Positions 7,566 to 62,086 of a stretch of DNA of 64,000 nucleotides are shown one piece after another. Below the pieces are notes generated by a model. That model was not told the origin of the DNA and searched no databases. It saw nothing but the letters and a program-made list of their open reading frames with translations. Position 1 is the stretch's first letter; every line of letters starts with the position of its first letter. This DNA comes from an uncultured Kiritimatiellota bacterium. GTDB taxonomy: Bacteria; Verrucomicrobiota; Kiritimatiellia; RFP12; UBA1067. Position numbers and translations under genes: made by a program. The stretch lies in the NCBI GenBank assembly GCA_934635385.1, contig CAKTZI010000011.1:20488-84487 (forward strand), written 5' to 3'.

Positions 7566-10500
7566 TTACCGGATGATGAGCAGCGCGCCGCCGCAGCGCA
7601 CCGTCAGCACGAGCGCCGTGTCCGTCCGCGTCAGGGAGAACATGCGCGAACCGGCCTTGTCCCGCGCGAGCGTGAACGTCGTCTGCGCGAGGCCGCTTCC
7701 GCAGGTGATGAGCGGATAGTCACCGGCCTTCAGCTTGTTCGGCTTGCCCGTCAGGTCGATTTCGCACGTGGCGGGCAGCGTGAGCGCGGACGCCTTGAGG
7801 TCGATCGCGTCAGCCACGCCGTCCGCCGAGCAGGCGAACGCCAGCGTCGTCTCGTCCGAAATCTCGACCGCGAGCGACGCACCGTCCGCAATCTGCGGCA
7901 GGCGGCGGAGCGACGACGCCCGCACCGTCCCTGCGCCCGTGAGCGTCGCCCCGTTCAGCGCCACGTAGCCGCTCGGCAACAGCCCCAGCCACTTCCAGGA
8001 GAGGTAGGCTTCGGCCGTCTTCAGCTCGGCTTCATCCAGCCGCCGGTTCCACATGAGGATCTCGCCCTGAACGGCCGCGCGCGTGTCCGCGCCGTAAAGG
8101 CGCTCGCTGTTGTAAAGGTACTCGAAGCAGACGGGCCCGTACGCGCCGTCCGGCTGGACGGTCAGGATCTCCGGACGACCGCGAAAGCCCTGCGCCGAGC
8201 CGTCCACCGTCTCGCCGTCGAGGCGCGTCACGCCCTTCGTCAGCACGTCCGCCGTGCCGGCCGGGTAGATGGGCGACGCGGCAGACTGCCCTTCGCGCAC
8301 CTTGTAAAGCGTCTGCGCCGCACCCGGCAGGACGCTGTTGCCGTCCACGAACGGCTGGCCGCCGCCGTACTTGGAGTCCTGTGCCATGACGAGCGTCTGG
8401 AATGCGTTCGTGACGACGTTCCCGGTCCAGGCGCCGTTCGCGGCGACGCGGAAGCGCAGCGTGTTGCCGTCGCTGGCCTGCGTCACGCCCTTCCAGTCGC
8501 TCGTCGTGACGTTCGAGTAGTCGAGCCACGCGCGCGCCGGGCCGAACCCGTGCGCCGACACGTCCTTCCACGGTGCGCGGTCGGTGGTCGTCGCCGTCAG
8601 GGCGAACGCGCCGTCCGTCGCCGTCGCGCCGAAGCGGCGGTCATGGAGCCACGTCACGCGCGACGCGGGCGACTTCGGCTTGGCCGTCGACGTGGTGTCC
8701 TGCTCGACAAGCGCACCTTCCGCGTCGGGGTCGAACCAGCCCGTCATGTCCTTCGTGTCAAGGGCGGTCGCGTCGGGCGGCGGCAGCGCGCCGTCGATCG
8801 TGAGCGTCGCCCCGTCGAGGTGGATCGTCCCCGAAAACGCGCCGGCGATCGCGGCGTCGGCCCGGACGTTCACCGTGCCGGTGCCGTAAAGGGCCGCGCG
8901 CGTCGTCGTGCCCGTCGGGCCTTTGTACTGCGCCGTCAGCCCCCACTTCGTCGCGAGATGCCACTCGATCTGCTGACGCTGCGCGTCCGTGAGTTCCCGG
9001 TCGAAGAGCAGCACTTCGGCATAGGCCTGTCCGCCGTTGTCCACGTTGTTCTTCGCCCCATAGCCCAACCCGGAGAAGCTGTTCGTCGTCGAGCCGAAGT
9101 CAATGGCGATGACCTGCCAGCCGCCGTTCAGCCCCGTCGTCGTCGGCTCGACCGCCTCGCCATCGACCCAGACGCGCGCACCGATCTCGTTGGCCTTCAG
9201 AATCGCGTCCTCCTTCGTGTGCGCGCCGACCTCGCCGCCGCGCAGGAAGTTCGCGTTGCCGCCGAGAAGCGCACCGCCGCCGCCCTGCTGCGATCCGTAG
9301 ACGAGAATCGCCGCGCGCGGCTTCAGGACGACATCCGCCGACACATCGTCTGCCGAGGACGTCTTGGTGAAGAAGATGCGCGGCAGGACCTGGTTGAGCG
9401 GTTCGCAGTCCCGCGCCTCCGTCTCGTCCGCGAAGGTCGCCCGGAAGCTGAGGCTGGGACGGTCGAACGACAGGTAGTCGTGTCCGTTCAGCCCGCCGCG
9501 CACACGGCGCGGATGGCAGAAGGTCATCACGTTGTGGTTCTCGTTGTAAAGCGCGTCGTAGCGACTGTTCCAGAGCCGCACGTCGCACGGCGTGGCGCGG
9601 CAGTCCGACCAGCCCTTGACGAAGGGATTGCCGTCCCTGTCGGAGATTGTCTGCCCGACCTGAAGCGGATTCACGCTCGCGTAGTTGGTGTAGGAGTTCT
9701 CGTAGGTGACGACCAGGTTGGAGATCGTCTCGCCCGCCGCCGCGTCCACCCACAGGAGCGGAAGCGCCGCCCATTCGGCCTGTCGTTCCAGCAGGTTGAT
9801 GGTCGAGCCGTCTTCGCCGCGAATCGGCATCTGCGCACCGTTGTCCGTCGCCGGCGCATAGTCGAGCGTCGCCCCGTTCCGCACGGTGATCTGCACGCGC
9901 GCGTTCACCGACGTCACGCACGCCGTCTCGCGCACGTCCATCGCCGCGCCGAGGCCCGGCGCCGTCGGTGTGCCGTCCGTCACGCGCAACGTCTTCGTGC
10001 CGTCGCCGTTGTCCGCAAACGACGCCGTCGCGAAATCCAGCGCCGCGCCGTCCGCCGCGTCGAGGCACACGAAGTCCGCCGCCGTCAGGGTGCAGGACGT
10101 GGGCACCGTCAGGATCGCCCGGTCGAAGCCGGACTTGGACGGCAGCAGAATGCGCACCGCCCCCGCCGTCTTCAGCGTGTCCGTCACGCGCGCCGTCCCG
10201 CAATCGGCATCCGTCGCGTCGAGAAAGCCGCCCGCGCGCACGTCGAGCGTGCCGATGACCGTCTGCGTACCCGCCGCGAGCTTCAGCGCGCCGCCTGCGT
10301 TCAGCTGGAGGGTGCCAAAGGTCGCCGTTTCGGACGCCGCCCACGCCGCGTTCCCCTTGCCGACCTCGACGATGCCCGCATACGGCGCGAAAAGCGCGAA
10401 TTCGGAAGCCGCTTTCGCGCCCGCCGCGAGGACAAGCCGTGCCGCGCTTTTCGAGCCGTCGCCCCGTCCGTTCCAGACGACACGCGCCGCCGCGTCGTTC

Positions 10501-11180
10501 CGCAGCGTGACGGTCGCGGACGCAGGAGCGTTCAGCGTCCAGTCGAGGCCGTAGACCGTCCGTGCGCCACTGGCCGTGCCGGCCTTGACCAGGAGTTCGG
10601 CGCCCTCCGCAAGCGTCAGCGTGCCGACCGTCTGCGGATCGGCCGAGCTGCGCGCGGCGAAGCTGTACTGATTGCCCGTGCCGACCACGCGCACGTCCGT
10701 TCCGAGATCGACGACGCTCGTGCCCTTCGAGCAGTGGGTGATCGTGCCGGACGAGAGCGTGAGCGACTTGCCGGGGAACGTGTAGCGCTCCGTCGCGCCC
10801 TCTTCGTTCGGCGTCGCCAGCGGCAGGTCTTTCCCCGACACCCAGTAGTCGTAGGAGGCGTTCGGCGGAAAGAAGCCCGTGGCCGTCGTGTCGGCCGCAC
10901 CGTTGCGGTAGAGCGTCCAGCGGTTGACCTTCGAGGAGGCCGTGAGCGAACTGCCGAAGAACCCTTTCCCGTAGTCCGCGTCAGACATGACGGTCGTCTT
11001 CGCGTCGCCGTTCAGCGTGTTCGCGTAGAGGCTGTCCGCATTGTAGTCCGACTTCGTCAGGACGGCATACGTCCCGTCGGACGGCAGGGCCGCAAAGCCC
11101 GCCAGCGACACAAGCCCCGCCGCAACGGCGACAAGTCCGTGACGGCACGTCTTTTTCTTTTGCGTGATTATCTTTTTCAT
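7566..11180 (-). CDS. Giant secreted surface protein with beta-helical/autotransporter-type repeats and at least two LamG (concanavalin-like) domains.
   Basis: 1204 aa with a signal peptide. Repeated GTLTLAEGAELLV- and TLQLNAGGALKLAAG-type strands. LamG domain ends are AEVLLFDRELTDAQRQQIEWHLATKWGL and GEILMWNRRLDEAELKTAEAYLSWKWLGL. An AAGGAG Shine-Dalgarno sequence is present. Only 16 nt separate it from the GRE gene. Confidence 0.85.
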   Translation of the reverse strand: MKKIITQKKKTCRHGLVAVAAGLVSLAGFAALPSDGTYAVLTKSDYNADSLYANTLNGDAKTTVMSDADYGKGFFGSSLTASSKVNRWTLYRNGAADTTATGFFPPNASYDYWVSGKDLPLATPNEEGATERYTFPGKSLTLSSGTITHCSKGTSVVDLGTDVRVVGTGNQYSFAARSSADPQTVGTLTLAEGAELLVKAGTASGARTVYGLDWTLNAPASATVTLRNDAAARVVWNGRGDGSKSAARLVLAAGAKAASEFALFAPYAGIVEVGKGNAAWAASETATFGTLQLNAGGALKLAAGTQTVIGTLDVRAGGFLDATDADCGTARVTDTLKTAGAVRILLPSKSGFDRAILTVPTSCTLTAADFVCLDAADGAALDFATASFADNGDGTKTLRVTDGTPTAPGLGAAMDVRETACVTSVNARVQITVRNGATLDYAPATDNGAQMPIRGEDGSTINLLERQAEWAALPLLWVDAAAGETISNLVVTYENSYTNYASVNPLQVGQTISDRDGNPFVKGWSDCRATPCDVRLWNSRYDALYNENHNVMTFCHPRRVRGGLNGHDYLSFDRPSLSFRATFADETEARDCEPLNQVLPRIFFTKTSSADDVSADVVLKPRAAILVYGSQQGGGGALLGGNANFLRGGEVGAHTKEDAILKANEIGARVWVDGEAVEPTTTGLNGGWQVIAIDFGSTTNSFSGLGYGAKNNVDNGGQAYAEVLLFDRELTDAQRQQIEWHLATKWGLTAQYKGPTGTTTRAALYGTGTVNVRADAAIAGAFSGTIHLDGATLTIDGALPPPDATALDTKDMTGWFDPDAEGALVEQDTTSTAKPKSPASRVTWLHDRRFGATATDGAFALTATTTDRAPWKDVSAHGFGPARAWLDYSNVTTSDWKGVTQASDGNTLRFRVAANGAWTGNVVTNAFQTLVMAQDSKYGGGQPFVDGNSVLPGAAQTLYKVREGQSAASPIYPAGTADVLTKGVTRLDGETVDGSAQGFRGRPEILTVQPDGAYGPVCFEYLYNSERLYGADTRAAVQGEILMWNRRLDEAELKTAEAYLSWKWLGLLPSGYVALNGATLTGAGTVRASSLRRLPQIADGASLAVEISDETTLAFACSADGVADAIDLKASALTLPATCEIDLTGKPNKLKAGDYPLITCGSGLAQTTFTLARDKAGSRMFSLTRTDTALVLTVRCGGALLIIR

Positions 11181-11213
11181 GTGTACTCCTTGTTAGCCGT
11201 TTTCAATTGTGAG

Positions 11214-11320
11214 CGTATTATCGCATAAATCTCCAGCGAATACTTGCACGATTGGGCTAAAAATGTGTATTATCAGACCATCACATTCAAATCGGGGATA
11301 CAATGTCCGCGTGGAGGCGC
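11214..11320 (-). promoter_or_regulatory. Conserved ~107-bp upstream module, copy 1. It contains the extended -10 TGCGATAAT (11217-11225, minus strand) and an upstream conserved block.
   Basis: Near-identical to 20691-20798. The shared core is gcgtattatcgcataa...cttgcacgattgggctaaaaa.gtgtat.atc. It lies directly upstream of the LamG gene. Confidence 0.55.
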
Positions 11321-11460: not shown

Positions 11461-12156
11461 TTAAAGGAGTGTCAGCATCTCGTCTGACGTCTTTCGCTCC
11501 CGCCTGTCTTGCAGTACTTCTTCCCTTGTCCGCATCGGTCGTCCCAAGAACGCTTCCACAAGAGCCTTTGCCCGTGTACGCTCCGCGTCTGTGGCATTGT
11601 AACGCTTGCAGTCGGAATCGAATATCCTTTCAAACGACGCCACATACGTCTCATATCGTCCCAGACAATATCGATAGGCGCGACGCCACGACTCGAATTT
11701 CTGGGGGTTATTCTTTCTCAACCGAACGGATTCGCCATTTGAGGCCATCGCTTTCCATCGGTCGAGTTCCCGTCTCATCCATCCGAATTGCCGAATTTTG
11801 GCTTTGCATTCGTCCTCAATCGTCCATCGCCCCGTCTCGCTCCACCGATAGGGCATCAGCCAACTCCAAACGTTTACGAACACACGGCATTGCCGTTCGT
11901 AGTCTTCGCCTTGAAGCTTGACGTCACACAATTTGTCGTCCAAAATCCGATAACAGGCCGCGCGAACGGCTCGGTTCGTCTCCGACAGGATCAGATCGCC
12001 CACGCGGTCGAGCGGGTCTCGCACATTCGGTTCGCCCAGCCGCCGAATGGCCCTGTCTGCCTTTTTCTCGACTTTGCGAAGGAAAGGGTCTTTTCCTCCG
12101 TCGCAGCCCACGACCGTCAGTGCTATCAGAATGCCGAATAAGATATGCCTTACCAT
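11461..12156 (-). CDS. Hypothetical lipoprotein.
   Basis: 231 aa. MVRHILFGILIALTVVGCDGG contains a lipobox. It overlaps the upstream gene by 7 nt (ATGGTAA). No recognisable family. Confidence 0.6.
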   Translation of the reverse strand: MVRHILFGILIALTVVGCDGGKDPFLRKVEKKADRAIRRLGEPNVRDPLDRVGDLILSETNRAVRAACYRILDDKLCDVKLQGEDYERQCRVFVNVWSWLMPYRWSETGRWTIEDECKAKIRQFGWMRRELDRWKAMASNGESVRLRKNNPQKFESWRRAYRYCLGRYETYVASFERIFDSDCKRYNATDAERTRAKALVEAFLGRPMRTREEVLQDRRERKTSDEMLTLL

Positions 12157-15100
12157 AGTTTCACCCCATCAAGATAAACAGATCCCAGCACCTCGCGGAC
12201 GGCCTCATGCCGCAGCTTGCGCACGCCCGCCGTGCCGAATTCGTCAATTGTGAACGTCTGCGTCTCGTCCGCCGCAAAGCACTTCCAAGGTTCCGCGCCG
12301 TCAGTCGTTTGGGGGACATTCCAGCCCAAGGGAATGCACCAGACGTTCTCCCCTGCAATCCATCCCACGGACAGGGATTCGGAGAGCTGTCCGCCCGGCG
12401 TCATGCGCGGATACGGTTGCGTACACGCCGCCGTGTCACGCGCATCAATGATGTTCTCGTCCAGGACGCGAAACCAGACTCCAGCACCATTCTCACGTGA
12501 GTGGCAGCGGTCTCCGTCAAAGTAGGAATGCGTGAAATAGCCGGTCTGAACGCCCATCGTCGATGGCACTTCCTCGACCCAGATCTCCTGGAACGAGACG
12601 TCCAGAGGAAGAACCTGTATGTCCAGCTGAAGTCCGATTCCGCCCGCGCTAAGCGACGAAAGCCCGTATGTGACTACGCCGGGATTGAGCGCGCGGACGC
12701 CTGACGGCTCCACGACCAGGATCGAGGGCGTATAGGAGACTCCGCCGCAAACGACTTCCAGCGGATTCGACTCGGCGTCAAGCGGGCATCGGTATGTTTT
12801 GTCCTTCTGCATCCTGCCACCGCCTTTCACATTCCACGAAACGTTCGCGACTTCTGGTTCAAAACCGCAGTCGATCAATTCATAAACGCCAAACTTATGT
12901 CGTCCTTCGCTTCCGTTTCCGCCTTCAATCTGAATCGGTCTAATTGTGACCTTGACCGCCGTCAGCGTCGCCTCGGACGTGATCTTCTCCCCGCTCTCCT
13001 CCTCGGTGAAGGTCGCGACGGCCTTGACGTCGCCCGCGCCGCCGCTCGCCGACTGCGCCCGGTACCTCACCTTGATCTTGAACGACTCGCCCGCCTCGAC
13101 CGTCCCCTCGCGCGGCAGGAACGAGCCGCCCACACGTTCGAGCCGTCCGCCGTCGCGCAGCTCGAAGGAATACGAGCCGCCCTTCGTCCCGCCGTAGACG
13201 CTGAACTCGGCTTCGGTCTCCGTCGAGCGCCGCGCGACCGTCTCGCCCGGCGCGTTCTCGTACTCGTCCTCGAAGATGATCGCGGACTCGGAGAACGTCG
13301 CCGAGACGGACAGCCCCTGCGGCTCGTGGTCAGGCTCGTCCTCATCGGGATACGTCGGCCTGTCGGGCGGCGACTCGTGCGAGCAGCCGCAGGGCCAGTC
13401 CGCGAACGACAGCTCGAAGCCCTCGAAGCGGCACGTGTACGTCCCGACCGCGCAGCCTCCGCAGCCGCAGTTCCCGTCGCAGCTGAACAGGGGCACGGTG
13501 AACGGCGGTGGCGGCGGCTCAAGGCAGCAGTAGTTGCCGTTCCACGACACGTCGGCGCCGTCGGGCGCGGGCGTGAAGCGCACGCGCCGTCCGCCTGACG
13601 CGGCGCGGGGCGCGACGGCGGACGCACGGAACGCGGCGACGGGCGAACCGTCCACGATCTCGCACCGGACAGGGCGGCAGACCGTCAGGTGTCCGTCCGC
13701 GTCTACGCCAATTTCGATGTCGGGATGGGATGCGCCGACGCAGACGAGCGTCAGCCGGCAATCGGCGGTGTAGGACTTGCCGAGCAGAAGGACGACGCGG
13801 TTCGTCTCGCCGGCCTTCGCGACGAACGATGGATCGGGCAGGTTCGACGCGCCGCTGCCCGTGAACGTCACGAGGGCGTTCGCGGCAGGGGCGACGAGAT
13901 CGACCCAGTAGTAGTTGTTGGAATGCGCGATGGAGGACAGGTCTTGGCGCGGGCCGAACTGCGGCTCGTCCGCCGCGACAAGCGGCGCGCCGTCCACGTC
14001 ATTCGGGATGCCGTCGTCGTCCCAGTCGTCAGGGTTGACGCGGCGATAGACGCGCTCGATGTCATTGGAGCGCGCGATGAAGTCGCCGTTCGGGAAGAGC
14101 TCGAGCTGCGCGTTGACGGCTGGATGGTCAACAACCTGTCTCTTGACCACGGAAGACACGGAAGCCACATTCGTGGACACAGAAAGGATTAGCGAAGAAT
14201 GCCCTTCGGGGTTCTCCAATCCGTTTTCTCCCAACATGTTCCCAGAAGTTGGGAGAACAGGGGTTGAGGAATCCCGAAGGGCTCCTTTCTCTAACCCATT
14301 CCGTGTCACCGGAGGCGTTTCATCTCTTTCCGTGGTTTGAGAAGAAGAAACGGACACTTCCGCTCTCTCATACGGGTTGCCGAGGAAGAAGTTCTCCCAC
14401 GTCAGCACGACCGAGCCGTTCGTGGTCGCCGCCGTCCAAAGATAGGACTGTCCGTGTCGCGCGAACATCGGCGCGCCGATGACGGCGATCTCGTTCGAGG
14501 CGTTCCGCAGCTGCGGGCGCACCTTGCCCCACGTGTGCGCCCAGAGCGACGTCACGACGTGGCGACCCAAAGGGAAAAGGAAGATGGAAGAAGGAAGAAG
14601 TGCGGAACGGTCCGCTTTCCTGTGCTGTCCGACGGCCTCGGATTCCGCAACAGAGGAGTTGTCCTCCGCACTTCTTCCTTTTCCCTTCTTCCCTTTTCCT
14701 TCCTCCCCCAACATCACCCATACACGCCCCCTGTAGGCGTCGGTGAGATGCCACGTGCTGACGAGCCGTGCGTTCGTCGGTCGCGTGTAGGAAACGGCCT
14801 TGTTCGTCCGCACCGCTTCGAGGCGGTAGCCCCGCACGACGTCGTTGGATGAGAGAGTGGGGTTGCTGTCGCCTAACGCGGAGTTGTAGGAGGAGGGGAG
14901 GCACGGAGTTTCTTTACTGTCTGTCGAAGTTTTGTCCACGGATTGACACGGATTATCACGGATTTGGATTTGTGTCGCTTCGTGTTGATTCGTGGATGAT
15001 CCTTCTCCCGATCCGTGTGAATCCGTGAAATCCGTGGATGCCTCTCCGTGCCTCCGCATCTCCTCATCCTCCGCATTAAGCGTCGCAGACCCCTCTGCGG

Positions 15101-15368
15101 ATGCCGCAGGCATCACTTCCTCAATTCGTGCCGATTCGTGAAGATTCGTGGCTACATTCGCCGGTTTCTGCGCGAAGACCGTCGCGACGACGACCGCCGT
15201 CACGAGGTCGGCCTTGCTGGACGGCGGCAGCCTAACGAACTGCTCCAACAACCCAAGCAGAAACTTTCGTGCGCACACAGCGGTCGCCGCCGCGAGGCAT
15301 CCGCCCGCAAGAGCCACGCAAGCCCACACGAAGTACGGTGTACGAAAGATTTCCGCAACTGTTCTCAT
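12150..15368 (-). CDS. Large membrane-anchored hypothetical protein (1072 aa) carrying several in-frame repeat-element insertions in its N-terminal third.
   Basis: Long ORF with an N-terminal TM helix (YFVWACVALAGGCLAAATAV) and the start preceded by TGATATAAT. The C-terminal two thirds have ordinary protein-like composition. No family recognised. Confidence 0.7.
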   Translation of the reverse strand: MRTVAEIFRTPYFVWACVALAGGCLAAATAVCARKFLLGLLEQFVRLPPSSKADLVTAVVVATVFAQKPANVATNLHESARIEEVMPAASAEGSATLNAEDEEMRRHGEASTDFTDSHGSGEGSSTNQHEATQIQIRDNPCQSVDKTSTDSKETPCLPSSYNSALGDSNPTLSSNDVVRGYRLEAVRTNKAVSYTRPTNARLVSTWHLTDAYRGRVWVMLGEEGKGKKGKGRSAEDNSSVAESEAVGQHRKADRSALLPSSIFLFPLGRHVVTSLWAHTWGKVRPQLRNASNEIAVIGAPMFARHGQSYLWTAATTNGSVVLTWENFFLGNPYERAEVSVSSSQTTERDETPPVTRNGLEKGALRDSSTPVLPTSGNMLGENGLENPEGHSSLILSVSTNVASVSSVVKRQVVDHPAVNAQLELFPNGDFIARSNDIERVYRRVNPDDWDDDGIPNDVDGAPLVAADEPQFGPRQDLSSIAHSNNYYWVDLVAPAANALVTFTGSGASNLPDPSFVAKAGETNRVVLLLGKSYTADCRLTLVCVGASHPDIEIGVDADGHLTVCRPVRCEIVDGSPVAAFRASAVAPRAASGGRRVRFTPAPDGADVSWNGNYCCLEPPPPPFTVPLFSCDGNCGCGGCAVGTYTCRFEGFELSFADWPCGCSHESPPDRPTYPDEDEPDHEPQGLSVSATFSESAIIFEDEYENAPGETVARRSTETEAEFSVYGGTKGGSYSFELRDGGRLERVGGSFLPREGTVEAGESFKIKVRYRAQSASGGAGDVKAVATFTEEESGEKITSEATLTAVKVTIRPIQIEGGNGSEGRHKFGVYELIDCGFEPEVANVSWNVKGGGRMQKDKTYRCPLDAESNPLEVVCGGVSYTPSILVVEPSGVRALNPGVVTYGLSSLSAGGIGLQLDIQVLPLDVSFQEIWVEEVPSTMGVQTGYFTHSYFDGDRCHSRENGAGVWFRVLDENIIDARDTAACTQPYPRMTPGGQLSESLSVGWIAGENVWCIPLGWNVPQTTDGAEPWKCFAADETQTFTIDEFGTAGVRKLRHEAVREVLGSVYLDGVKLW
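14197..14282. repeat. Imperfect inverted repeat (about 35-bp arms) inside a CDS.
   Basis: gcccttcggggttctccaatccgttttctcccaac pairs with gttgggagaacaggggttgaggaatcccgaagggc. Confidence 0.7.
14572..14707. repeat. Purine-rich/pyrimidine-rich inverted repeat element inside a CDS.
   Basis: gggaaaaggaagatggaagaaggaagaagtgcgga pairs with tccgcacttcttccttttcccttcttcccttttccttcctccc. Confidence 0.75.
14870..15152. repeat. Nested palindromic elements. The outer element is CGGAG-type (14870-15082), the inner is CACGGAT-type (14936-15037), and a CACGAAT-type tail follows.
   Basis: Outer arms are cgcctaacgcggagttgtaggaggaggggaggcacggag and ctccgtgcctccgcatctcctcatcctccgcattaagcg. Inner arms are ccacggattgacacggattatcacggattt and atccgtgtgaatccgtgaaatccgtgg. 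Confidence 0.8.
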
Positions 15369-15385: not shown

Positions 15386-15468
15386 TGTTGGTGAGGATTC
15401 CCGCAAATGCTCACCTGTCCGAGACTTGTCGCGAAAAGAGGGAATCGTACGGGCTTTCTAAAGAAAGC

Positions 15469-15500
15469 GCATTCTCACTTTTTTAAAAAAGTGAGAATGC
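15469..15500. terminator. Perfect 32-bp palindrome, a putative bidirectional transcription terminator downstream of the LRR gene.
   Basis: gcattctcacttttttaaaaaagtgagaatgc lies 25 nt after the stop at 15525. Confidence 0.5.
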
Positions 15501-15524
15501 GATGCCCTGCTTTTTGCCCAGCGG

Positions 15525-19158: not shown

Positions 19159-20685
19159 TCAGTACCGCTGCAGCAGCTCCAGCATCTTGCGGTCGATCCG
19201 ATGGCCCTGGAACGCCTCATAGTCCACGTCCGCGCGATTGCTGTCCAGCAGCCCGAACCCGCCGCGGAAGTTCCAGAACGCCCAGCCGATGTTGCGCGCC
19301 TTCAGCTCCTTCAGCAGGCTTTCGAGATAGGCGAGCGACACGTCGTGCGGCGTCCGGTTGAAGACGCCCGTCTCGCCGACCATGACGAACCGCCCCGCCG
19401 CGAGCGCGTCCTCCCAGGGGGCGAAGACGTTGTCGCGCAGGAAGTCCGCGCCCGTGTAGGCCGCTCCGTCCCGGTTCACGAGCGGCTGCGGCGCGTCCCA
19501 GCCCGCGAAGCGCACGGGCGTCCGCGCGGGCATCCACGGCAGCCGCCAGCGGTAGGACGGGACGACGCGCGCCGACCGCCCGTCCGCCGCGAACACGAGG
19601 GCGTCCACCTCCATCCAGTCGCCCTGACCCAAGCCGATCTCCAGCCGCGCGCACGCCGGCACGTCCACCGCAAACGGCGCCACGGGTACACCCGCCCACT
19701 CCTCGTTGGAGCGCGCCACAAGGTTCGTGTAGCCGTCCGCCCCCTTCTCCTGCGGGAAGAAACGCCGGCGACCGACTTCGCGGCCGTCGGCCTTCACGAC
19801 GAGTTCCGCGAGGCGGTTGACGCGACCCGGCACGACCGTCAGCCGGCAGGCGGGTACCCGCTCGATGACGATCGGCTCGTCCACCCCCTTCTTGCGCGAG
19901 CCGTAGAGCGGACTCGTCACGGGGACGGGCGGCCACTGCGGCGTCGGCCACGCGCCGTCGCGCCTGCACCAGGGCGCCTCGTAGTGCGTGATCTCCATCG
20001 GGTCGTACACGTGAAGGCTCAGGCCGACGGACGCGGGAATCTCGCCGCGCGGCGGCATCCGCGCCATCTGGAGGCCGTCCGCCACGACGAACCGCGCGGG
20101 CGACTCAGCGTGGATCGCCTGCTCGCAGGCGGCGATGAACGCCGCGTAGGCCGCCGCGTCGCAGTCGGCGCTCGGCTCGTTGAAGAGGTTGAAGGAGAGG
20201 GCGTCGCCCGGAACGTCGCGGTAGCGGCGCGCGAAGAACGTCCAGCAGGCGACGTTCGCGCGGATGAGCGCAGGGGCTTCGAGAATCGCCTTCTTCGAGC
20301 GGCTGACCGCATAGTCCACGCCCGGCGGAATCGAGAAGCAGAACTGGATGTGGATGTTGTGCTTCCGGCCCCAGCCAAGCATCTCGTCGATGGGCGGGAA
20401 GAGCGCGGGGTCCGGCTCGAACGTGCCGGGACGGCAGAAGTAGCGGTGGTCGATCATGACGCGCGCGAAGTTGAAGCCCCAGTCGCGCATGAGGATGAGG
20501 TCGCGCTCGTCCCACGTCCCGGAGAACATGCCCTTGATGGCCTTGCCGTCGATGTTGAAGCCGCGCCAGCGCACGGCGGGACGTCCCGGCGCGCCAGCGG
20601 GCGTCGCGTCCGCCGCGCACGCACCACCGAAGCAGACGCCGAAGCCGAGAATGAACAGGAGAGCAATCTGTGAGCCGTTTTTCAT
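19159..20685 (-). CDS. Glycoside hydrolase family 5 (cellulase/mannanase-type), secreted.
   Basis: MRDWGFNFARVMIDHRYF. FNLFNEPS carries the NEP acid/base Glu and MVGETGVFN the nucleophile Glu. Signal peptide MKNGSQIALLFILGFGVCFGGACAA. The true ATG is at 20685; the track ORF is extended to 20781. Confidence 0.85.
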   Translation of the reverse strand: MKNGSQIALLFILGFGVCFGGACAADATPAGAPGRPAVRWRGFNIDGKAIKGMFSGTWDERDLILMRDWGFNFARVMIDHRYFCRPGTFEPDPALFPPIDEMLGWGRKHNIHIQFCFSIPPGVDYAVSRSKKAILEAPALIRANVACWTFFARRYRDVPGDALSFNLFNEPSADCDAAAYAAFIAACEQAIHAESPARFVVADGLQMARMPPRGEIPASVGLSLHVYDPMEITHYEAPWCRRDGAWPTPQWPPVPVTSPLYGSRKKGVDEPIVIERVPACRLTVVPGRVNRLAELVVKADGREVGRRRFFPQEKGADGYTNLVARSNEEWAGVPVAPFAVDVPACARLEIGLGQGDWMEVDALVFAADGRSARVVPSYRWRLPWMPARTPVRFAGWDAPQPLVNRDGAAYTGADFLRDNVFAPWEDALAAGRFVMVGETGVFNRTPHDVSLAYLESLLKELKARNIGWAFWNFRGGFGLLDSNRADVDYEAFQGHRIDRKMLELLQRY

Positions 20686-20690
20686 GGTGT

Positions 20691-20798
20691 GCGTATTATC
20701 GCATAATCCGCCAGCAAATGCTTGCACGATTGGGCTAAAAAAGTGTATGATCGGCTCATCCCCTTCAAGGCGGGAATACAAGGGCGCGACAGGCGGAG
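20691..20798 (-). promoter_or_regulatory. Conserved ~107-bp upstream module, copy 2. Its extended -10 TGCGATAAT (20695-20703) lies 9 nt from the GH5 ATG.
   Basis: Aligns with 11214-11320. It lies between GH5 and the divergent AraC gene. Confidence 0.55.
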
Positions 20799-20870: not shown

Positions 20871-21812
20871 ATGACGAGATCTGACAAGACACAGGGGCAG
20901 GGCCGAAAGAACAGGACGCACAAGACGCAGAGGACGCACAAGACAGGCTTGGCGAACCCTGCGGCCTGTTCGCCTTGCGGGTCTTCTGCTTCAGCGTCCC
21001 CTGCGTCCTGTTCGTCCCGTGCGTCCTGTTTGCCCCCAGCCGGCACCACCGCCCTGACCGACCCGGAGAAGGAGGCTCTGCGCGCGGCATTCTTCGCCGC
21101 GCTCGGGCCGAACGCCGCCGTCTTCAAGGAACTGCTGGAGCGCGCCCCCGAGCTGTGCTTCTACATGAAGGACCGCGAGGGCCGCATCATGGCCCTGAAC
21201 CGCCGCAACTGCGAAGTCTGCAACATCCGCAGCGAATGGGACGCGATCGGCCGCACGTCACGCGACCTCTTTCCGCCGACGCTCGCCGACGACTACATGG
21301 AGCTGGATCACGAGGTCCTGAAGACGGGGCGCCCCGTCCTCCAGCGCGTCACCGCCCACCCCGCCGACTACTCCAACCGCCTGATGATCTCCGACGTCTA
21401 TCCGCTGCGCGACCGGCGCGGACGCCTCATCGGCACGGCCCGCGCCTACCGGCTCACGAGCCGCGACTCGTCCGAGGCGCGCAACTACAACGCCCTGCGC
21501 GCCGTCGCGACCGAGATCGACCGGCGCTATGCCGAACCCCTTTCGCTCGACGCCCTGGCCCAGCGGGCGGGCATGTCGAAGAGCACGTTCAAGCGCACGT
21601 TCACCCGGCTTTTCGAGGTCTCGCCCGGCCAGTACCTGCTGCGCGTGCGGCTCAACGCCGCGCGGCGGCTGCTGGAGACGACGGACAAGCTCATCTCCGA
21701 CGTCGCGCTCGACTGCGGCTTCTACGACCAAAGCCACTTCAGCCGCCTCTTCCGCCGCGCGCGCGGCCTCACGCCCGGCGCCTATCGCCGCGCCCACGCG
21801 CAGACGGGATAG
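20871..21812 (+). CDS. PAS-domain AraC/XylS-family transcriptional regulator.
   Basis: The C-terminus LSLDALAQRAGMSKSTFKRTFTRLFEVSPGQYLLRVRLNAARRLLETTDKLISDVALDCGFYDQSHFSRLFRRARGLTPGAYRR is the AraC HTH. A PAS-like block (FYMKDREGRIMALNRRNCEV) precedes it. The first ~55 codons are encoded by a palindromic repeat element. Confidence 0.8.
   Translation: MTRSDKTQGQGRKNRTHKTQRTHKTGLANPAACSPCGSSASASPASCSSRASCLPPAGTTALTDPEKEALRAAFFAALGPNAAVFKELLERAPELCFYMKDREGRIMALNRRNCEVCNIRSEWDAIGRTSRDLFPPTLADDYMELDHEVLKTGRPVLQRVTAHPADYSNRLMISDVYPLRDRRGRLIGTARAYRLTSRDSSEARNYNALRAVATEIDRRYAEPLSLDALAQRAGMSKSTFKRTFTRLFEVSPGQYLLRVRLNAARRLLETTDKLISDVALDCGFYDQSHFSRLFRRARGLTPGAYRRAHAQTG
20909..21031. repeat. 123-bp inverted-repeat element (GGACGCA-type) within the 5' end of the AraC ORF.
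   Basis: Arms are gaacaggacgcacaagacgcagaggacgcacaagacagg and cctgcgtcctgttcgtcccgtgcgtcctgttt. The centre contains a small hairpin, ggcgaac...gttcgcc. Confidence 0.75.
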
Positions 21813-36087: not shown

Positions 36088-37506
36088 TCACTTGCCGACG
36101 CAGAAGCGCGAAAAGAGGCTGTCGAGCAGGTCGGACGAGTAGGTCGCGCCGACGAGCGCGCCAAGCGATTCGGCGGCCGCACGCACCGCGTTCCCCGCCA
36201 AAACAAGGTCAAGCGGCACATTTTGCAGGAGGGGCGTGAGGTGCGCGCGCGCCGCACACAGGGCCGACAACGCCCGGTCGTCAGGGGCGTCGGACGCCCC
36301 CTCCGACGCGGCGGACGCCGCCCGCCGTTCGAGCGCGGCCACAATCGCCCGCCTGAGTTCGCCCAGCCCCTCGCCCGTCTTCGCCGAGACGTTCAGCCCT
36401 TCGCCGCGCCCCAAATCGCACTTGGGATGGATGGGGAGGAGAGTGGGAGAAGCAGTCTCGGACGTGAGTGATGTGAGGGACGCGGGGGACGTGAGAGCCG
36501 AAAGAGACGCGAGGGACGCAGTGGAGCGAACGCTCGGTTCGCCTGACAAGTCAATCACAATGTCGGCTTCGGCGATCAACTTTTCGGCACGCTTCACGCC
36601 GGCGGCTTCGAGCGCGTCCTCCGTCTCGCGCAGCCCCGCCGTGTCAACGAGCCGAATCGGCCAGCCGTCCAAGTCCAGCCACGCCTCGACCGAGTCGCGC
36701 GTCGTGCCCGGCACATCGCTCACGAGCGCGCGGTTCTCCTCCAAGAGCGCATTCAGGAGCGAACTCTTGCCGGCGTTCGGCGGCCCCGCGAGAACGACCC
36801 GCGCGCCGTCGCGCAGGATGCGTCCCGCACGGACGCGCGTCGCCGCCGTGCCGAGCGCCGCGTCGAGCGCGGCGAGCGACGTGCGTAGCGACGCGAAGAA
36901 GCTGTCGGGCAGTTCGCCCTCGTCGATGTCGAGCGCGTGCTCCAGTTCGGACGACAGGTCGAGCGCGCGGTCATAGAGCGCGCGGTGCGCACGCGCGCGG
37001 CGTCCGGCCAGGCCGTCCAGCGCGGCGTCCGCCGCGCGCGCGGTCTTCGCCTGAATGAGGTCAAGAACGCTTTCCGCCTGGTCATAGTCGAGCTTGCCGT
37101 TCAGAAACGCGCGCTCGGTGAACTCGCCGCGCCGCGCGAGCCGCGCCCCGGCGGCGAAGCAGGCCTCCAGCACACGGCGCGGCGTGACCGCCCCGCCGTG
37201 GCACTGGAACTCGACGACGTCTTCGCCCGTGTAGGAATGGGGCGCGCGAAAGGCGAGAACGACGGCGGTGTCGAGGGGGGGGAGGTTTGGGAGGTTTGGG
37301 GGTTTGGAAAGTTTGGGGGGTTGGGAGGTTGGAAACAGGGCGCAGACGCGCGCGCACGGCAAGCCACCGGACGGAGGCGCGAAGCGGCCGCGCGTCAGGC
37401 GCGTGGCGACGGCGAACGCCTCAGGCCCCGAAACGCGCACGACCGCGACCCCGGCAGGGCCGGGCGCGGTCGCAATCGCTGCGATGGTCTCATTCTGATT
37501 CAGCAT
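36088..37506 (-). CDS. mnmE: tRNA modification GTPase MnmE (TrmE).
   Basis: TIAAIATAPGPAGVAVVRVSG, YTGEDVVEFQCHGG, GPPNAGKSSLLNAL, and the C-terminal FCVGK. It carries two low-complexity in-frame insertions. Confidence 0.9.
   Translation of the reverse strand: MLNQNETIAAIATAPGPAGVAVVRVSGPEAFAVATRLTRGRFAPPSGGLPCARVCALFPTSQPPKLSKPPNLPNLPPLDTAVVLAFRAPHSYTGEDVVEFQCHGGAVTPRRVLEACFAAGARLARRGEFTERAFLNGKLDYDQAESVLDLIQAKTARAADAALDGLAGRRARAHRALYDRALDLSSELEHALDIDEGELPDSFFASLRTSLAALDAALGTAATRVRAGRILRDGARVVLAGPPNAGKSSLLNALLEENRALVSDVPGTTRDSVEAWLDLDGWPIRLVDTAGLRETEDALEAAGVKRAEKLIAEADIVIDLSGEPSVRSTASLASLSALTSPASLTSLTSETASPTLLPIHPKCDLGRGEGLNVSAKTGEGLGELRRAIVAALERRAASAASEGASDAPDDRALSALCAARAHLTPLLQNVPLDLVLAGNAVRAAAESLGALVGATYSSDLLDSLFSRFCVGK
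36459..36525. repeat. GGGACGYGAG-type short tandem repeats inside mnmE.
   Basis: gacgtgagtgatgtgagggacgcgggggacgtgagagccgaaagagacgcgagggacgc encodes SLASLSALTSPASLTSLTS. Confidence 0.65.
37281..37336. repeat. GGTTTGG (CCAAACC) ~10-bp tandem units inside mnmE, in the opposite orientation to the murI copy relative to the coding strand.
   Basis: ggaggtttgggaggtttgggggtttggaaagtttggggggttgggaggttggaaac encodes QPPKLSKPPNLPNLPP. Confidence 0.8.
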
Positions 37507-37520
37507 CGCCGCACGTGATT

Positions 37521-37548
37521 TCTCCGTGCCTCCGTGTCTCCGTGTGAG
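37521..37548. repeat. Solo half-arm of the CGGAG-type element in the mnmE/antiporter intergenic spacer.
   Basis: tctccgtgcctccgtgtctccgtgtgag is nearly identical to 52546-52573. Confidence 0.7.
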
Positions 37549-41856: not shown

Positions 41857-41860
41857 GGGA

Positions 41861-41944
41861 AAATAATCGAATAATCGAATTGGAGAATAATCGAATAATC
41901 GAATAATCGAATTGAAGAATTGGAGAATTGGAGAATTGGAGAAT
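41861..41944. repeat. Two adjacent 9-bp tandem arrays: AATAATCGA (about 5 units) and GAATTGGAG (about 4 units).
   Basis: aaataatcgaataatcgaattggagaataatcgaataatcgaataatcgaattgaagaattggagaattggagaattggagaatt fills the ACT-UPF0210 spacer. Confidence 0.85.
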
Positions 41945-42217
41945 TTAGATGCGGTGCATCTTCTCGAAGATCTCGGACTTCTGGCAGCGGATGTGCAGCC
42001 CCAGTTCGAGGCCGAGCTTCGAGAGTTCCGCACCCACCTTGTCGAAGGTCTTCCGGCACTTCGCGCCATCGACGATCATCATCATGTTGAAGTAGCCGCC
42101 CACGACGGTCTGCGAAATGTCGAGAATGTTGATTTCGTTCTTGGCGAGGTAGGCGCTCGTCTTCGCGATGATGCCAACGGTATCCTTGCCGACGACGGTG
42201 ATGATGACTTTTTTCAC
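41945..42217 (-). CDS. ACT-domain protein (UPF0237).
   Basis: [39 protein letters not shown] start with a strong AAGGAG Shine-Dalgarno sequence. Confidence 0.85.
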
Positions 42218-51582: not shown

Positions 51583-51693
51583 TCGTATTTTTCCTTGTTC
51601 GTGGTTGCAGACTTCTCTTTCAGATGTTCTGCCTGACAAATTTTTCAGCGCCTCGCTCTTCTCAACCTCTCACCTTCTCAACCTCACAACCCC

Positions 51694-51912
51694 TCATACC
51701 GGCGCGCATTCGATGCGCCGCGCGAGCTCGTCGTTGAGGGCGAGGCGGCTGTCGTGGATGCCGACGATCTTGCCGCCCTCCGTGTCTTCGATGACGCGGA
51801 CGACCGTCCCGGCCGAGAAGCCGAGACTCCCCAGATGCTTGCGCGTGGCGTCTGCCCCGCCCACGCGCATCACGCGCGCCGACTCACCGGCCTTGAAGAA
51901 CGACAATGGCAT
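51694..51912 (-). CDS. feoA: FeoA-domain protein (second copy).
   Basis: MPLSFFKAGESARVMRVGGADATRKHLGSLGFSAGTVVRVIEDTEGGKIVGIHDSRLAL. Confidence 0.75.
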   Translation of the reverse strand: MPLSFFKAGESARVMRVGGADATRKHLGSLGFSAGTVVRVIEDTEGGKIVGIHDSRLALNDELARRIECAPV

Positions 51913-52084: not shown

Positions 52085-54592
52085 TCACTTGTTCAATGTC
52101 GTGTGGCTGCCGCGTTTGATCAAGACGGCGAGGACGGCGATGTCGGCTGGGTTCACGCCGGGTATGCGGCTTGCCTGTGCGAGCGTTTCGGGACGGAATT
52201 TCTTCAGTTTCTCACGGCTCTCATAGCGCACAGCCAAGCACTTGTCATAGTCGAGCCATTTCGGAATGACGAGTGCTTCGTCCTTCTTGGCTCGTTCAGC
52301 CGCTTTCTCCTCCTGCTCAATGTACGGTGCATAATGACGCATAATCATAACTTCTCGGTCAATTCGAGAAAGGCCGTTGAGATTGGTTGGCGTGAAAGGA
52401 GTTGTAATGGGATGGCTCACACGGAGGCACGGAGACACGGAGGTTTTTAACATTGAAGACACGAAAACGTCACTTGCGGGCACGAATTTCGTGTCTGAAT
52501 GTCCGTTTCTTCTATTTTCGTGTTTATCACATTCTCTTACAAAATTCTCCGTGCCTCCGTGCCTCCGTGTGAGGCTTTCATTTTTATTGAGCCTTGTCAA
52601 AATCTCCTGATACTCTTCTTCTATCGCATCAAGCGTTTCCTTCGACAGAATGCCAATGCGCTTGGCCGCAGACAGCAATCGATAGTAGGCATTGTCCTGA
52701 CGCAGGATGAGACGTCGTTCGGCACGGCTCGTGAACATACGGTACGGCTCGTCCGTGCCCTTCGTGACAAGATCGTCAATCATGACGCCAATGTAGGCAT
52801 CCTGTCGGCTGAGAACGAGCGGCTCTTCGCCTTTGACCTTCAATGCGGCATTGATGCCCGCCATGAGGCCCTGCGCGGCCGCTTCTTCGTAGCCCGTCGT
52901 GCCGTTGATCTGTCCGGCGAAGAAAAGACTGGGAATGCGCTTCGATTCGAGCGTGTGTGTCAGCTCGCGTGCATCGATGCTGTCGTATTCGATGGCATAG
53001 GCGTAGGCGAGAAAATCGGCATGTTCAAGTCCGGCAATCGAATGCACCATCTCTTCCTGTACCTTTTCGGGTAGCGAACAGCTCAAGCCGTTCGGATAGA
53101 TGACCGTGCCGTCCTTGTCCTCAGGTTCGAGAATGACGTGGTGCTGATGGGCTTCGGCGAAGCGTACGATCTTGTCCTCAATGCTCGGACAGTACCGAAC
53201 ACCCGTTCCGACGATTTTTCCGCTATAGAGAGCCGAAACCGCGAGGTGGTCACGGATGATTTGGTGTGTCTTGTCGTTTGTATGTGTCATCCAACACGGC
53301 AACTCCGGCAAATTGTTCCACGTGGAACAACTTGGGAATGCCTGCGGCGCTGAACGCGGAGAAGACGGAGAGGCGGAGACGCGGAGTTTCAGTTCAGATA
53401 CACTCTCCAAATCATCTCCGTGTCTCTCATTCTCCATTCCCTCCGCGTTAAGCGACAGCAACCCGGTCGAACAGGGAGAAGCCTGCGGCGCTGAACACGG
53501 AGAAAACGAAGAGGCAGAGGTGCGGAGTCTCGGATCTGGTGCTTCATCCTTTAAAGAAACTTCATCTCTTCCATTCTCCTTTATCTTCGTGTTAAGCGTC
53601 GCAGACCTCTCTCGCTCTCCCTCGCTCCGTGTCAATCCGTGATAATCCGTGGCCAACTCACACGGAGGCACGGAGGCACGGAGGTTTGTCGGGTTGTCTA
53701 CAGTTTCTCCGTGCCTTCCATTCTCCCTCACCTCCGTGTTCAGCGTCGCAGACATCTCTCCCTCGCTCTCAATCCGTGCCAATCCGTGATAATCCGTGGC
53801 TAAAAAAGTGTGTTCCACGTGGAACAATGGGCGAGGGGTGGCGCCATCTTGTCGCTGGCAGACGCTGAAATCACAGCTTGAAGCCTTGAGACGCGGTGGC
53901 GTACCTGTCTTCAGGCGAATCAGCTCGAAACCAAGAGCTGAAAGGCTCTCTGAAAGCTGATTGACGGCGGGGCGTCCGTCGCCGCCGCTTTCGCGGCACT
54001 GGTCGCCGATCCAAACGCGGCCGCGCAGGGCCGTGCCGCTCGTAATGACGACGGTTCGCGCGGTGAGTGTGCCGTGACATTCCGTTTTCACGGAATGCAC
54101 GGGATAGAGAACTGGTGTTAAATCAGCGTTTAGTTTGGCTGACGATTGGCTGGTTTGAAATGAATCAGCGTTTTGTCTAATGAGTTTTGAAGGCTGCCCG
54201 ACTTCAATACCGATCACGGCATCTTCGAGAACGGTCAGGTTGGGTTGCGCGGCGATGACGGCTTGCATACGCGCGGCGTATTCCCTCTTTGCGCATTGGC
54301 AGCGCGTCGCCCAGACGGCGGGGCCTCGGCTCAGGTTGAGAATCTTCGCCTGAAGGGCGGTGGCATCCGCGTTCTTGCCCATTTCGCCGCCCAGCGCGTC
54401 GAGCTCGCAGACGAGGTGGCTCTTGGCCAAGCCGCCGATGGACGGGTTGCAGGGCATGCGCGCAATGGCATCTGCACGGGAGGTGACGAGAAGAGTCGAC
54501 ACGTTCATGCGCGCCGCCGCAAGGGCGGCTTCGGCGCCGGCATGTCCGCCGCCCACGACAATGACGTCAAACTGTGACTGTAAAAAAGACAT
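52085..54592 (-). CDS. mnmG: tRNA uridine-5-carboxymethylaminomethyl modification enzyme MnmG (GidA). At 835 aa it is enlarged by three in-frame insertions.
   Basis: [66 protein letters not shown] and [15 protein letters not shown]. Typical MnmG proteins are about 620-630 aa. The ATG at 54592 lies 6 nt after TGCTATAAT. Confidence 0.9.
52416..52573. repeat. CGGAG-type palindromic element with a nested CACGAA-type core, inside the mnmG 3' region.
   Basis: Arms are ctcacacggaggcacggagacacggagg and tctccgtgcctccgtgcctccgtgtgag. Confidence 0.85.
53313..53827. repeat. Composite of three palindromic repeat units inside mnmG, bracketed by two copies of the palindrome TTGTTCCACGTGGAACAA.
   Basis: Palindromes at 53313-53330 and 53811-53827. 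Units at 53340-53462, 53481-53652 and 53653-53800. The unit ends (gcctgcggcgctgaac... and ...gttaagcgacagcaac) are shared with 60042-60167 and 61047-61316. Confidence 0.85.
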
Positions 54593-54598
54593 GGTGAA

Positions 54599-54607
54599 AT
54601 TATAGCA
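54599..54607 (-). promoter_or_regulatory. Extended -10 TGCTATAAT, 6 nt upstream of the mnmG ATG (leaderless-type).
   Basis: The reverse complement of attatagca is tgctataat. The spacer is ttcacc. Confidence 0.55.
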
Positions 54608-54740
54608 CACTTGACGCTGATTTGTGAACAGAAAATATTTTAATGTTATGAGACGTTGAAAATTCATTTTTACGTGATTTTAGTTAAAAACATCAATTTT
54701 TGAAAGATAACCGTTTTGTCAAGAGGAAAGATGTAAAATC

Positions 54741-57714: not shown

Positions 57715-57733
57715 ATGCAGAATTATCGCGCAA

Positions 57734-57823
57734 GCGGGTCCGGAGAAGCTTCGCAACGGTGCGAAGTGCCGAAGGTGTAACTCCCCGAAAGGGTCGGGGA
57801 CGATCTCTCAGGCAAAAGGACGG
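57734..57823 (+). ncRNA. Glycine riboswitch (single aptamer).
   Basis: cGGAGAAg, P2 hairpin gcttcgca/tgcgaagt, GCCGAAGGTGTAA, P3 hairpin tcccc/gggga, then CTCTCAGGCAAAAGGAC. This matches the conserved glycine-aptamer core. It lies upstream of an AGCS symporter, a known genomic context for this riboswitch. Confidence 0.8.
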
Positions 57824-57840
57824 AAAGGCAAGACAAAACA

Positions 57841-61965: not shown

Positions 61966-61987
61966 GAAAAATTTCTCAATGCCCCCC

Positions 61988-62017
61988 TTGACACCCAAAT
62001 GGGTAATATGGTATAGT
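61988..62017 (+). promoter_or_regulatory. Strong sigma-70 promoter: TTGACA, 18-nt spacer, TGgTATAGT.
   Basis: cTTGACAcccaaatgggtaatatggTATAGT, about 70 nt upstream of the ATG at 62087. Confidence 0.6.
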
Positions 62018-62086
62018 TCGCATCGTGAGGCCGAAAAGACACCCGAACGGGTGACAATTTGCCAACAACCAAAAAGGAAAACACAC

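Follow-up and report, generated by a model that had tools for sequence, protein, structure and literature searches.

A 64-kb stretch of DNA from an uncultured Kiritimatiellota bacterium (assembly GCA_934635385.1, contig CAKTZI010000011.1, positions 20,488–84,487), referred to here as the window, carries on its minus strand an open reading frame (ORF) of 1072 aa (12150–15368) that is crossed by a series of hairpin-forming palindromic elements. The ORF is open throughout, as its translation was read. The predicted protein begins with an N-terminal membrane anchor, continues with ~340 aa in which the elements lie amid conserved blocks, and ends in beta-rich domains; a Pfam scan of the ORF returned no family. 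Orthologous and related loci were taken from metagenome contigs of independent samples. An earlier note on this DNA, made from the sequence alone, had claimed three hairpin elements within the ORF.

Hairpin elements in the 1072-aa reading frame

All elements of this ORF are given in window coordinates and lie on its strand (minus). The first, E1, is an inverted repeat at 14176–14307, with 60 nt arms (14176–14235 and 14248–14307) that are 77 % complementary around a 12-nt loop. E1 is itself enclosed by a decayed CACGGAA-type palindrome at 14147–14335, the arms of which lie at ~14147–14178 and 14298–14335. The second element, E2, is a purine/pyrimidine palindrome at 14570–14707; its 37 nt arms (14570–14606 and 14665–14701) are 86 % complementary and flank a 58-nt loop. 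The third, E3, is a composite palindrome at 14856–15096 (241 nt) with outer arms of 53 nt (14856–14908 and 15044–15096, 72 % complementary), which belong to the GYCTGCGRCGCTKAACRCGGAG family, hereafter fam1. Within E3 lies a 102-bp inner palindrome (14936–15037) built from CACGGAT ×3 (at 14937, 14947 and 14957) and ATCCGTG ×3 (at 15011, 15021 and 15030), with a period of 10. The loop of the inner palindrome in turn holds a degenerate CACGAAT-type triple array (14967–14994), an alternative pairing partner for the right arm. A solo half element follows at 15124–15150: ATTCGTG ×3 on the plus strand (at 15124, 15134 and 15144, period 10), corresponding to CACGAAT ×3 on the coding strand, where it encodes TNLHES. 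This half element is kept in all aligned orthologues.

Segments were folded as single-stranded DNA and compared with shuffles. The resulting z-scores were −7.1 for E1, −6.0 for the CACGGAA-type palindrome around it, −6.5 for E2, −10.4 for the E3 composite and −5.6 for its inner 102-bp palindrome; the minimum-energy structure of E3 is the nested one. Across all elements examined in the window the z-scores ranged from −3.1 to −10.4, while two control stretches of 132 nt from the same ORF gave −1.1 and +1.3, i.e. folded no better than shuffles. The hairpin-forming inverted repeats are thus present where they had been claimed to be (repeat scan; fold z −5.6 to −10.4). Their positions had been placed correctly, with boundaries drawn slightly too narrow, as for E1, claimed at 14197–14282 and found at 14176–14307. 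The count of three took in elements that are all present, but at least six modules can be distinguished, E1 being nested within CACGGAA-type arms; both the palindrome around E1 and the CACGAAT-type array at 14967–14994 had been missed. The 102-bp palindrome in the E3 loop lies exactly as described, and the half element said to follow E3 was found.

The 1072-aa protein has 222 homologues, metagenomic except for two that are labelled Kiritimatiellia/Kiritimatiellae bacterium (39–41 % identity); the source names of these two gave the assignment to a Kiritimatiellia-like lineage used below. A protein alignment of 14 homologues consists of near-invariant blocks interrupted by three variable sites, and these sites fall exactly at the element positions. 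The window was also aligned, at DNA level, with three orthologues drawn from independent samples. The E2 site is empty in two of them and holds a hairpin of ~63 nt without the 58-nt loop in the other, compared with ~120 nt in the window. At the first site all four sequences have composite elements, with an extra CACGGAT ×3 arm in the window. The third site is occupied by CACGGAA-type arms with E1 in the window, by a perfect CACGAAT ×3/ATTCGTG ×3 palindrome in one orthologue, and in the other two by CACGGAT-type arms that enclose what is left of fam1 termini (complete on both sides in one, on the left only in the other). A second full-length E2 copy was located ~1 kb away in the P0023 gene, from a Hadza gut sample. 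The same three sites thus show absence, shortening or replacement, and the families recur in unrelated genes, which bears out the claim that these are inserted hairpin repeats and not conserved protein; orthologues that have an element keep it as palindromic DNA, and the converse case of conserved protein sequence without palindromic DNA was not what the alignments returned.

The elements introduce no stops into the host frame (0 for each), as had been claimed, and the peptides quoted earlier for them are present in the ORF translation. The other frames of most elements contain stops, 1–5 in several of them; E2 is open in all six frames and E1 in four. The composition of the elements differs from that of their host: the G+C content (GC) at codon positions 1/2/3 is 0.55/0.52/0.54 within the elements of the 1072-aa ORF and 0.63/0.50/0.80 in its remainder, and a similar contrast is found in two further element-bearing ORFs of the window (MnmG and TPK/HPPK, described below). 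Variable sites across the three orthologues are distributed over codon positions 1/2/3 as 0.17/0.11/0.39 in the host blocks (p = 8e-11, position 3 against positions 1+2) and as 0.28/0.30/0.39 in the element blocks (p = 0.2). The third-position bias on either side of the elements indicates that the host blocks are translated; the flat distribution within the elements indicates that these have no coding history or constraint. Additionally, because of the 10-nt period each of the three repeats in an arm falls in a different frame; the heptamer cores are nonetheless kept while the 2–3-nt spacers vary, and the constraint is therefore on DNA or RNA, not on the peptide. Blocks with a coding pattern flank each element in a single frame. 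Judged from this pattern, the elements would be read by ribosomes to give a predicted added peptide. No intein domain and no group I or II intron signature was detected in the elements (Pfam, Rfam), and an Rfam search of them gave nothing at the gathering threshold and only generic miRNA-hairpin matches below it.

A separate, perfect 34-bp palindrome with T/A runs is located outside the ORF at 15468–15501, between a BspA-type LRR gene and the start of the 1072-aa ORF, and looks like a terminator.

The same repeat families in other genes, genomes and phage contigs

An inverted-repeat scan together with self-BLAST linked E3 (14860–15096) to copies in the gene for MnmG, a conserved enzyme of tRNA modification, in a thiamin pyrophosphokinase (TPK)-like gene and in an HPPK ORF, located at 52416–52573, 53334–53464, 53474–53600, 53657–53803, 60036–60167, 60168–60214 and 61046–61351. 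The termini read GCCTGCGGCGCTGAAC... and ...GTTMAGCGYCGCAGRC; for the common fam1 terminus GCTGAACRCGGAGRAGACGGAG, 8 matches were counted in the window, where 0.00 are expected. On the plus strand, a fam1 copy and a half copy (60036–60214) lie in frame and split a TPK_catalytic domain; a fam1 tandem of 2.1 units of 144 bp (61046–61351, plus strand) forms the 3′ tail of the HPPK ORF. By Pfam, the ORF ending at 61355 accordingly reads as a split TPK_catalytic domain, then an HPPK domain with a 109-aa tail of the 144-bp tandem units. Overall, ~13 modules lie within ORFs of the window, and clearly intergenic sites number only 3 (37521–37545, 41858–41950 and 51640–51700), a small sample. The first of these is a solo CTCCGTG ×3 arm in an intergenic gap (37521–37545, no strand assigned).

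The gene for MnmG/GidA (52085–54667, minus strand) encodes 860 aa, compared with ~600–630, and the GIDA domain is matched in two stretches; Pfam finds host domains only. Lengths among the best 120 relatives run from 587 to 909 aa, and three hot spots are seen on alignment. Against the Aquifex MnmG (PDB 2ZXH), residues 157–192, 284–453 and 691–768 of the window protein are unaligned insertions. A block of 481 nt (53330–53810, minus strand) in the main hot spot contains three fam1 palindromes, CACGGAT arms and a CACGGAG ×3 arm, and a further CTCACACGGAGG-type palindrome with CACGGAG ×3 arms (52416–52573, minus strand) is carried in frame by the C-terminal linker. The 155-aa peptide of the MnmG insert, used as a protein query, gave no match at E ≤ 0.001.

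The filled block is bracketed by two copies of the perfect palindrome TGTTCCACGTGGAACA, at 53314–53329 and 53811–53826. In empty alleles (L159, 1063–1107) the main hot spot reads TGTTCCACGTGGAACA, 13 nt, TGTTCCACGTGGAACA. Alleles without an insert, too, read the two copies in two different frames, as the conserved residues FHVE and STWN. A target duplication was considered as the source of the TGTTCCACGTGGAACA pair and rejected, since empty alleles already have the two copies, at a spacing of 13 nt, and conserved residues are encoded by both. Filled alleles exceed empty ones by 174 nt in one relative and by 468 nt in the window, both multiples of 3. In a pair of MnmG alleles with 98 % identity the differences are confined to the hot spot, which measures 113 nt in one and 21 nt in the other; the 113-nt allele holds a 74-nt CTCACACGGAG...CTCCGTGTGAG palindrome. 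This pair indicates recent turnover, and on sequence comparison the change looks more like replacement than plain insertion.

Three further observations concern MnmG and its partner. In the more distant relatives P0219 and P0212 the hot spot is filled with HVEHVE/STCST repeats, and from the repeated HVE peptide we infer tandem CACGTGGAA units there. Outside its elements the window gene has a third-position GC of only 0.64, against 0.8–0.94 in its neighbours; the ORFs at 11461–12156 and 61979–64000 are likewise at ~0.62. MnmE/TrmE (36088–37506), the partner of MnmG, carries an in-frame GGGAGGTTT ×6 array at 37280–37335, within its N-terminal domain.

The nested build of E3 recurs elsewhere. L165, a locus from another sample and in an unrelated gene, aligns with the entire E3 end to end at ~85 % identity outside two stretches found only in L165. 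The alignment takes in the outer CGGAG arms, CACGGAT ×3, CACGAAT ×3, AT[C/T]CGTG ×3, and the loops and spacers; the E3 peptide also recurs in 12 protein clusters, one of them an MnmG fragment. Since the whole nest recurs in an unrelated gene, it is older than its arrival in the 1072-aa ORF and moves as a unit. Nesting had been taken earlier to indicate successive insertion events. Nested additions are indeed seen elsewhere, in the MnmG loop and in E1 within its CACGGAA-type arms, but the E3 nest, found whole in L165, does not fit; as far as the alignment indicates, it is inherited with the element and typical of its class, and is no record of successive hits at this locus.

The right inner arm reads ATCCGTG ×3 in the window and ATTCGTG ×3 in L165, i.e. 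three parallel changes, and for either version one of the two alternative left arms, CACGGAT ×3 or CACGAAT ×3, is a perfect partner. These changes suggest that arm complementarity is kept by intra-element correction or copying. New material, in turn, appears to enter preferentially at the centre of an existing hairpin. L165 also has an extra 81-nt module at a fixed point of the left arm, and the same point is used in several MnmG and orthologue copies. This module (L165 2281–2361; also in P0006, P0122, P0124 and P0127) encodes CA(A/E)ETQSVSEGRSQSDSERSELPARARE, always lies at the same point of fam1 left arms, and holds the small hairpins GAAACGCAAAGCGTTTC and GTCGCAAAGCGAC.

In metagenomes, a fam1 22-mer was found at 23 loci with a GC of 45–66 %, and on no viral contig. 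CACGGAG ×3 arms were found in 20 IMG/VR stretches (GC 47–70 %) and CACGGAT ×3 arms in 12, mostly solo and intergenic. Where both arms of a CACGGAG ×3 palindrome are present in IMG/VR the loops are variable, some enclosing an unrelated triple-repeat palindrome, and such nests are common. A scan of a genome collection with the 15-mer GCGCTGAACRCGGAG gave 120 stretches, nearly all of them chance matches in unrelated taxa; only one (L098) looks element-like.

One phage contig, L169 (IMGVR_UViG_3300005764_001273), has capsid-like and portal-like ORFs and three CACGGAG ×3 arms. Two of these arms lie directly upstream of near-identical short sequences ending ...GGGGCGATGGTCATATCTCA. The ORFs of this contig encode structural proteins and no transposase.

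Origin of the in-frame segments

The segments are probably (about 0.75) non-coding palindromic repeats resembling transposable elements of the miniature inverted-repeat kind (MITEs) or repetitive extragenic palindromic (REP) sequences, tolerated in frame in permissive loops as are the palindromic elements of Rickettsia (RPEs). Several families of small palindromic repeats would be involved, with arms made of two to four phased 8–10-nt units around a CAC(G/A)G-type core, and these would have spread both inside single genomes and from one genome to another, in a Kiritimatiellia-like lineage and in related DNA. A copy that enters a gene would survive only if it adds a multiple of three bases, if it is free of stops in the host frame and if it has landed in a loop or linker that is permissive. 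The surviving element would then simply be read through, adding a low-complexity peptide in the manner of the Rickettsia elements.

Several results weigh against this reading. No transposase or autonomous partner was found; of the 15 window ORFs scanned with Pfam, none is a transposase. No consistent target-site duplication occurs at the filled/empty boundaries compared; AAAGAC flanks one fam1 copy (60036–60173) and may belong to the tandem unit. In the 98 %-identical MnmG pair all of the sequence between the bracket palindromes differs, and the short flanks do too. E1 has no second copy among the metagenome loci collected or the viral contigs. The structure prediction for the 1072-aa protein is poor (mean predicted local distance difference test score, pLDDT, 41.7; <50 for residues 21–482), so that the inserts are not placeable on a surface. 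Finally, an open frame of 150 aa or more covers only 22 % of the metagenome fam1 copies, compared with 75 % of control positions; heavy in-gene carriage may be peculiar to the lineage of the window or to the window itself.

A rival reading is hairpin-targeted cassette exchange, in which a dedicated recombinase or single-strand transposase would insert or swap modules at the apex of existing hairpins and the arms would behave like attachment sites, generating loop diversity even in essential proteins. The added material is central in older palindromes (E1 within CACGGAA arms, the MnmG inserts between TGTTCCACGTGGAACA copies), the sequence between TGTTCCACGTGGAACA copies is wholly replaced in the 98 %-identical alleles, one codon position holds different families in different orthologues, and the 81-nt module always sits at one point of the fam1 arms. 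Among insertion sequences, IS1397 and ISKpn1 use REP palindromes as targets and insert in their loops. However, no recombinase gene was found, and E3 moves as a unit, so that some nests are inherited and not built on site. Tolerance alone predicts that second insertions survive best within earlier ones, and ordinary homologous recombination between strains could also swap a hot-spot allele. Such exchange is possible but rather unlikely. Equally tentative is the wider proposal of a widespread, undescribed modular palindrome class with phased CAC(G/A)G-core arm units, on bacterial and phage contigs of 47–70 % GC, that would insert or replace material specifically at the apex, have its arms actively restored, and in the Kiritimatiellia lineage act freely within essential genes and remodel protein loops.

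A role at the RNA level, either as intervening sequences, taken out of the RNA or bypassed, or as signals for mRNA stability or termination, would not need an open frame for protein function. The predicted hairpins are very stable, and the related copies from phage contigs and other genomes are intergenic, a position in which a terminator or stabiliser is plausible. Against this, the elements match no Rfam family at threshold and lack an intein or intron signature, and the in-gene copies keep the frame open and add multiples of three, most of them with stops in other frames. An open frame kept in multiples of three is expected only if ribosomes read through, and we regard an RNA-level explanation as improbable.

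It is less probable still that the segments are native, fast-evolving low-complexity linkers growing by slippage or duplication, with incidental palindromy. They do lie in low-confidence regions of the model and in length-variable loops, and short-period arrays are frequent in the window. This explanation is nevertheless already contradicted, since unrelated genes and samples contain this same DNA together with its spacers. Arm complementarity is far beyond chance and a codon-position signature is missing; that arm repeats are read in three frames places the conservation at the DNA level. Some amplification chemistries are known to yield palindromes, but chimeric fold-back sequences arising in assembly or amplification have next to no probability here, being already contradicted by related elements at the same sites in contigs from independent samples and assemblers and by a frame that is always preserved.

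Relation to known palindromic repeats and neighbouring features

RPEs are palindromic families of ~100–150 bp found in frame in unrelated, often housekeeping genes (Ogata et al. 2000, summarised in PMC10969869, PMC3733652), and are reported to encode conserved peptides. The elements of the window are likewise multi-copy palindromic families that lie in frame in genes which stay intact and to which they would add a peptide: there is an open frame through the elements in the 1072-aa ORF, in MnmG, in the TPK-like gene and in the HPPK ORF, and Pfam domains flank the elements in MnmG and the TPK-like gene. The host, however, is a GC-rich, Kiritimatiellia-like bacterium of another phylum, whereas Rickettsia is an alphaproteobacterium with AT-rich DNA and an obligate intracellular life. 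The sequences appear unrelated, and the peptides here are not conserved, given the flat codon-position variability. Phased 8–10-nt sub-repeat arms, nested and tandem modules, and hot spots with different families per orthologue are further differences. The elements are thus likened to RPEs by behaviour and are not filed as members of that group: the behaviour resembles that in Rickettsia, but the lineage is new and the build is modular and nested.

REP sequences are imperfect palindromes of 20–40 nt with a 5′ GTAG or CGTC tag (PMC3733652), and copies inside ORFs have been described in several bacteria, including the verrucomicrobium Opitutus terrae (PMC3733652; PMC3116915). With these, with their bacterial interspersed mosaic elements (BIMEs) and with the system of REPINs and REP-associated tyrosine transposases (RAYTs), the present elements share short hairpin palindromes, inverted doublets, mosaics, evolving intragenomic populations and an occasional in-frame position in genes. 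Unlike those of REPs their termini read GYCTGCG..., without a 5′ GTAG or CGTC tag, and their units are longer; REPs are extragenic, whereas most copies in the window are intragenic (those elsewhere lie mostly outside long ORFs). No RAYT gene was seen in the 64-kb window. MITEs, as reviewed in PMC10969869, are similar in that they are small, have no coding capacity of their own, end in inverted repeats, occur as multiple dispersed copies and can form in-frame fusions when they integrate; here, by contrast, no target-site duplication or parent insertion sequence was identified, and behind the conserved arms the interior varies greatly. Coding palindromes of Nematomorpha mitochondria (PMC6649704) are also long inverted repeats in protein genes with both arms translated, but those are organellar and locus-specific, whereas these form dispersed multi-copy families across genes and genomes. 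A full-text literature search returned no description of these repeat sequences, of the phased sub-repeat build, or of palindromes or MITEs in Kiritimatiellia.

In-frame selfish palindromes in housekeeping genes have hitherto been treated mainly as a Rickettsia curiosity, together with scattered REP cases. Here they would occur at high density in a free-living, GC-rich, gut-type bacterium of the Planctomycetes–Verrucomicrobia–Chlamydiae (PVC) group, in which MnmG is roughly one third larger and MnmE is affected too, as are the TPK-like gene and the HPPK ORF. Related strains that differ only at an insertion site offer a natural system for studying how proteins tolerate or recruit inserts and how hairpin repeats choose their targets. 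For annotation, the elements inflate protein lengths, split domain matches and yield spurious low-complexity ‘hypothetical’ peptides in metagenome catalogues.

Other repeats and regulatory features are present in the window. The intergenic arrays are of short period and non-palindromic, with AATAATCG ×6 and GAATTGGA ×4.6 at 41858–41950 and TCTCAACC ×4.6 at 51640–51700. The array at 41858–41950 separates an ACT-domain gene from a DUF711 gene, and the same genes overlap by 4 nt in the relative L160. A further type of palindrome, with ACAAGACGC/GCGTCCTGT arm units and a period of 9, is located at 20894–21036, at the 5′ end of an AraC/PAS regulator ORF, and may lie in the leader rather than in the protein. 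Stretches of 113 bp with 82 % identity to each other occur directly 5′ of the start codons of two large genes, at 11191–11303 (gene 7566–11180) and 20669–20781 (GH5-like gene, 19159–20781), and probably represent a promoter or leader common to both genes. A glycine riboswitch aptamer is located at 57730–57833 on the plus strand, 5′ of the ORF at 57841–59376, and scores 47.6 bits against a gathering score of 32.

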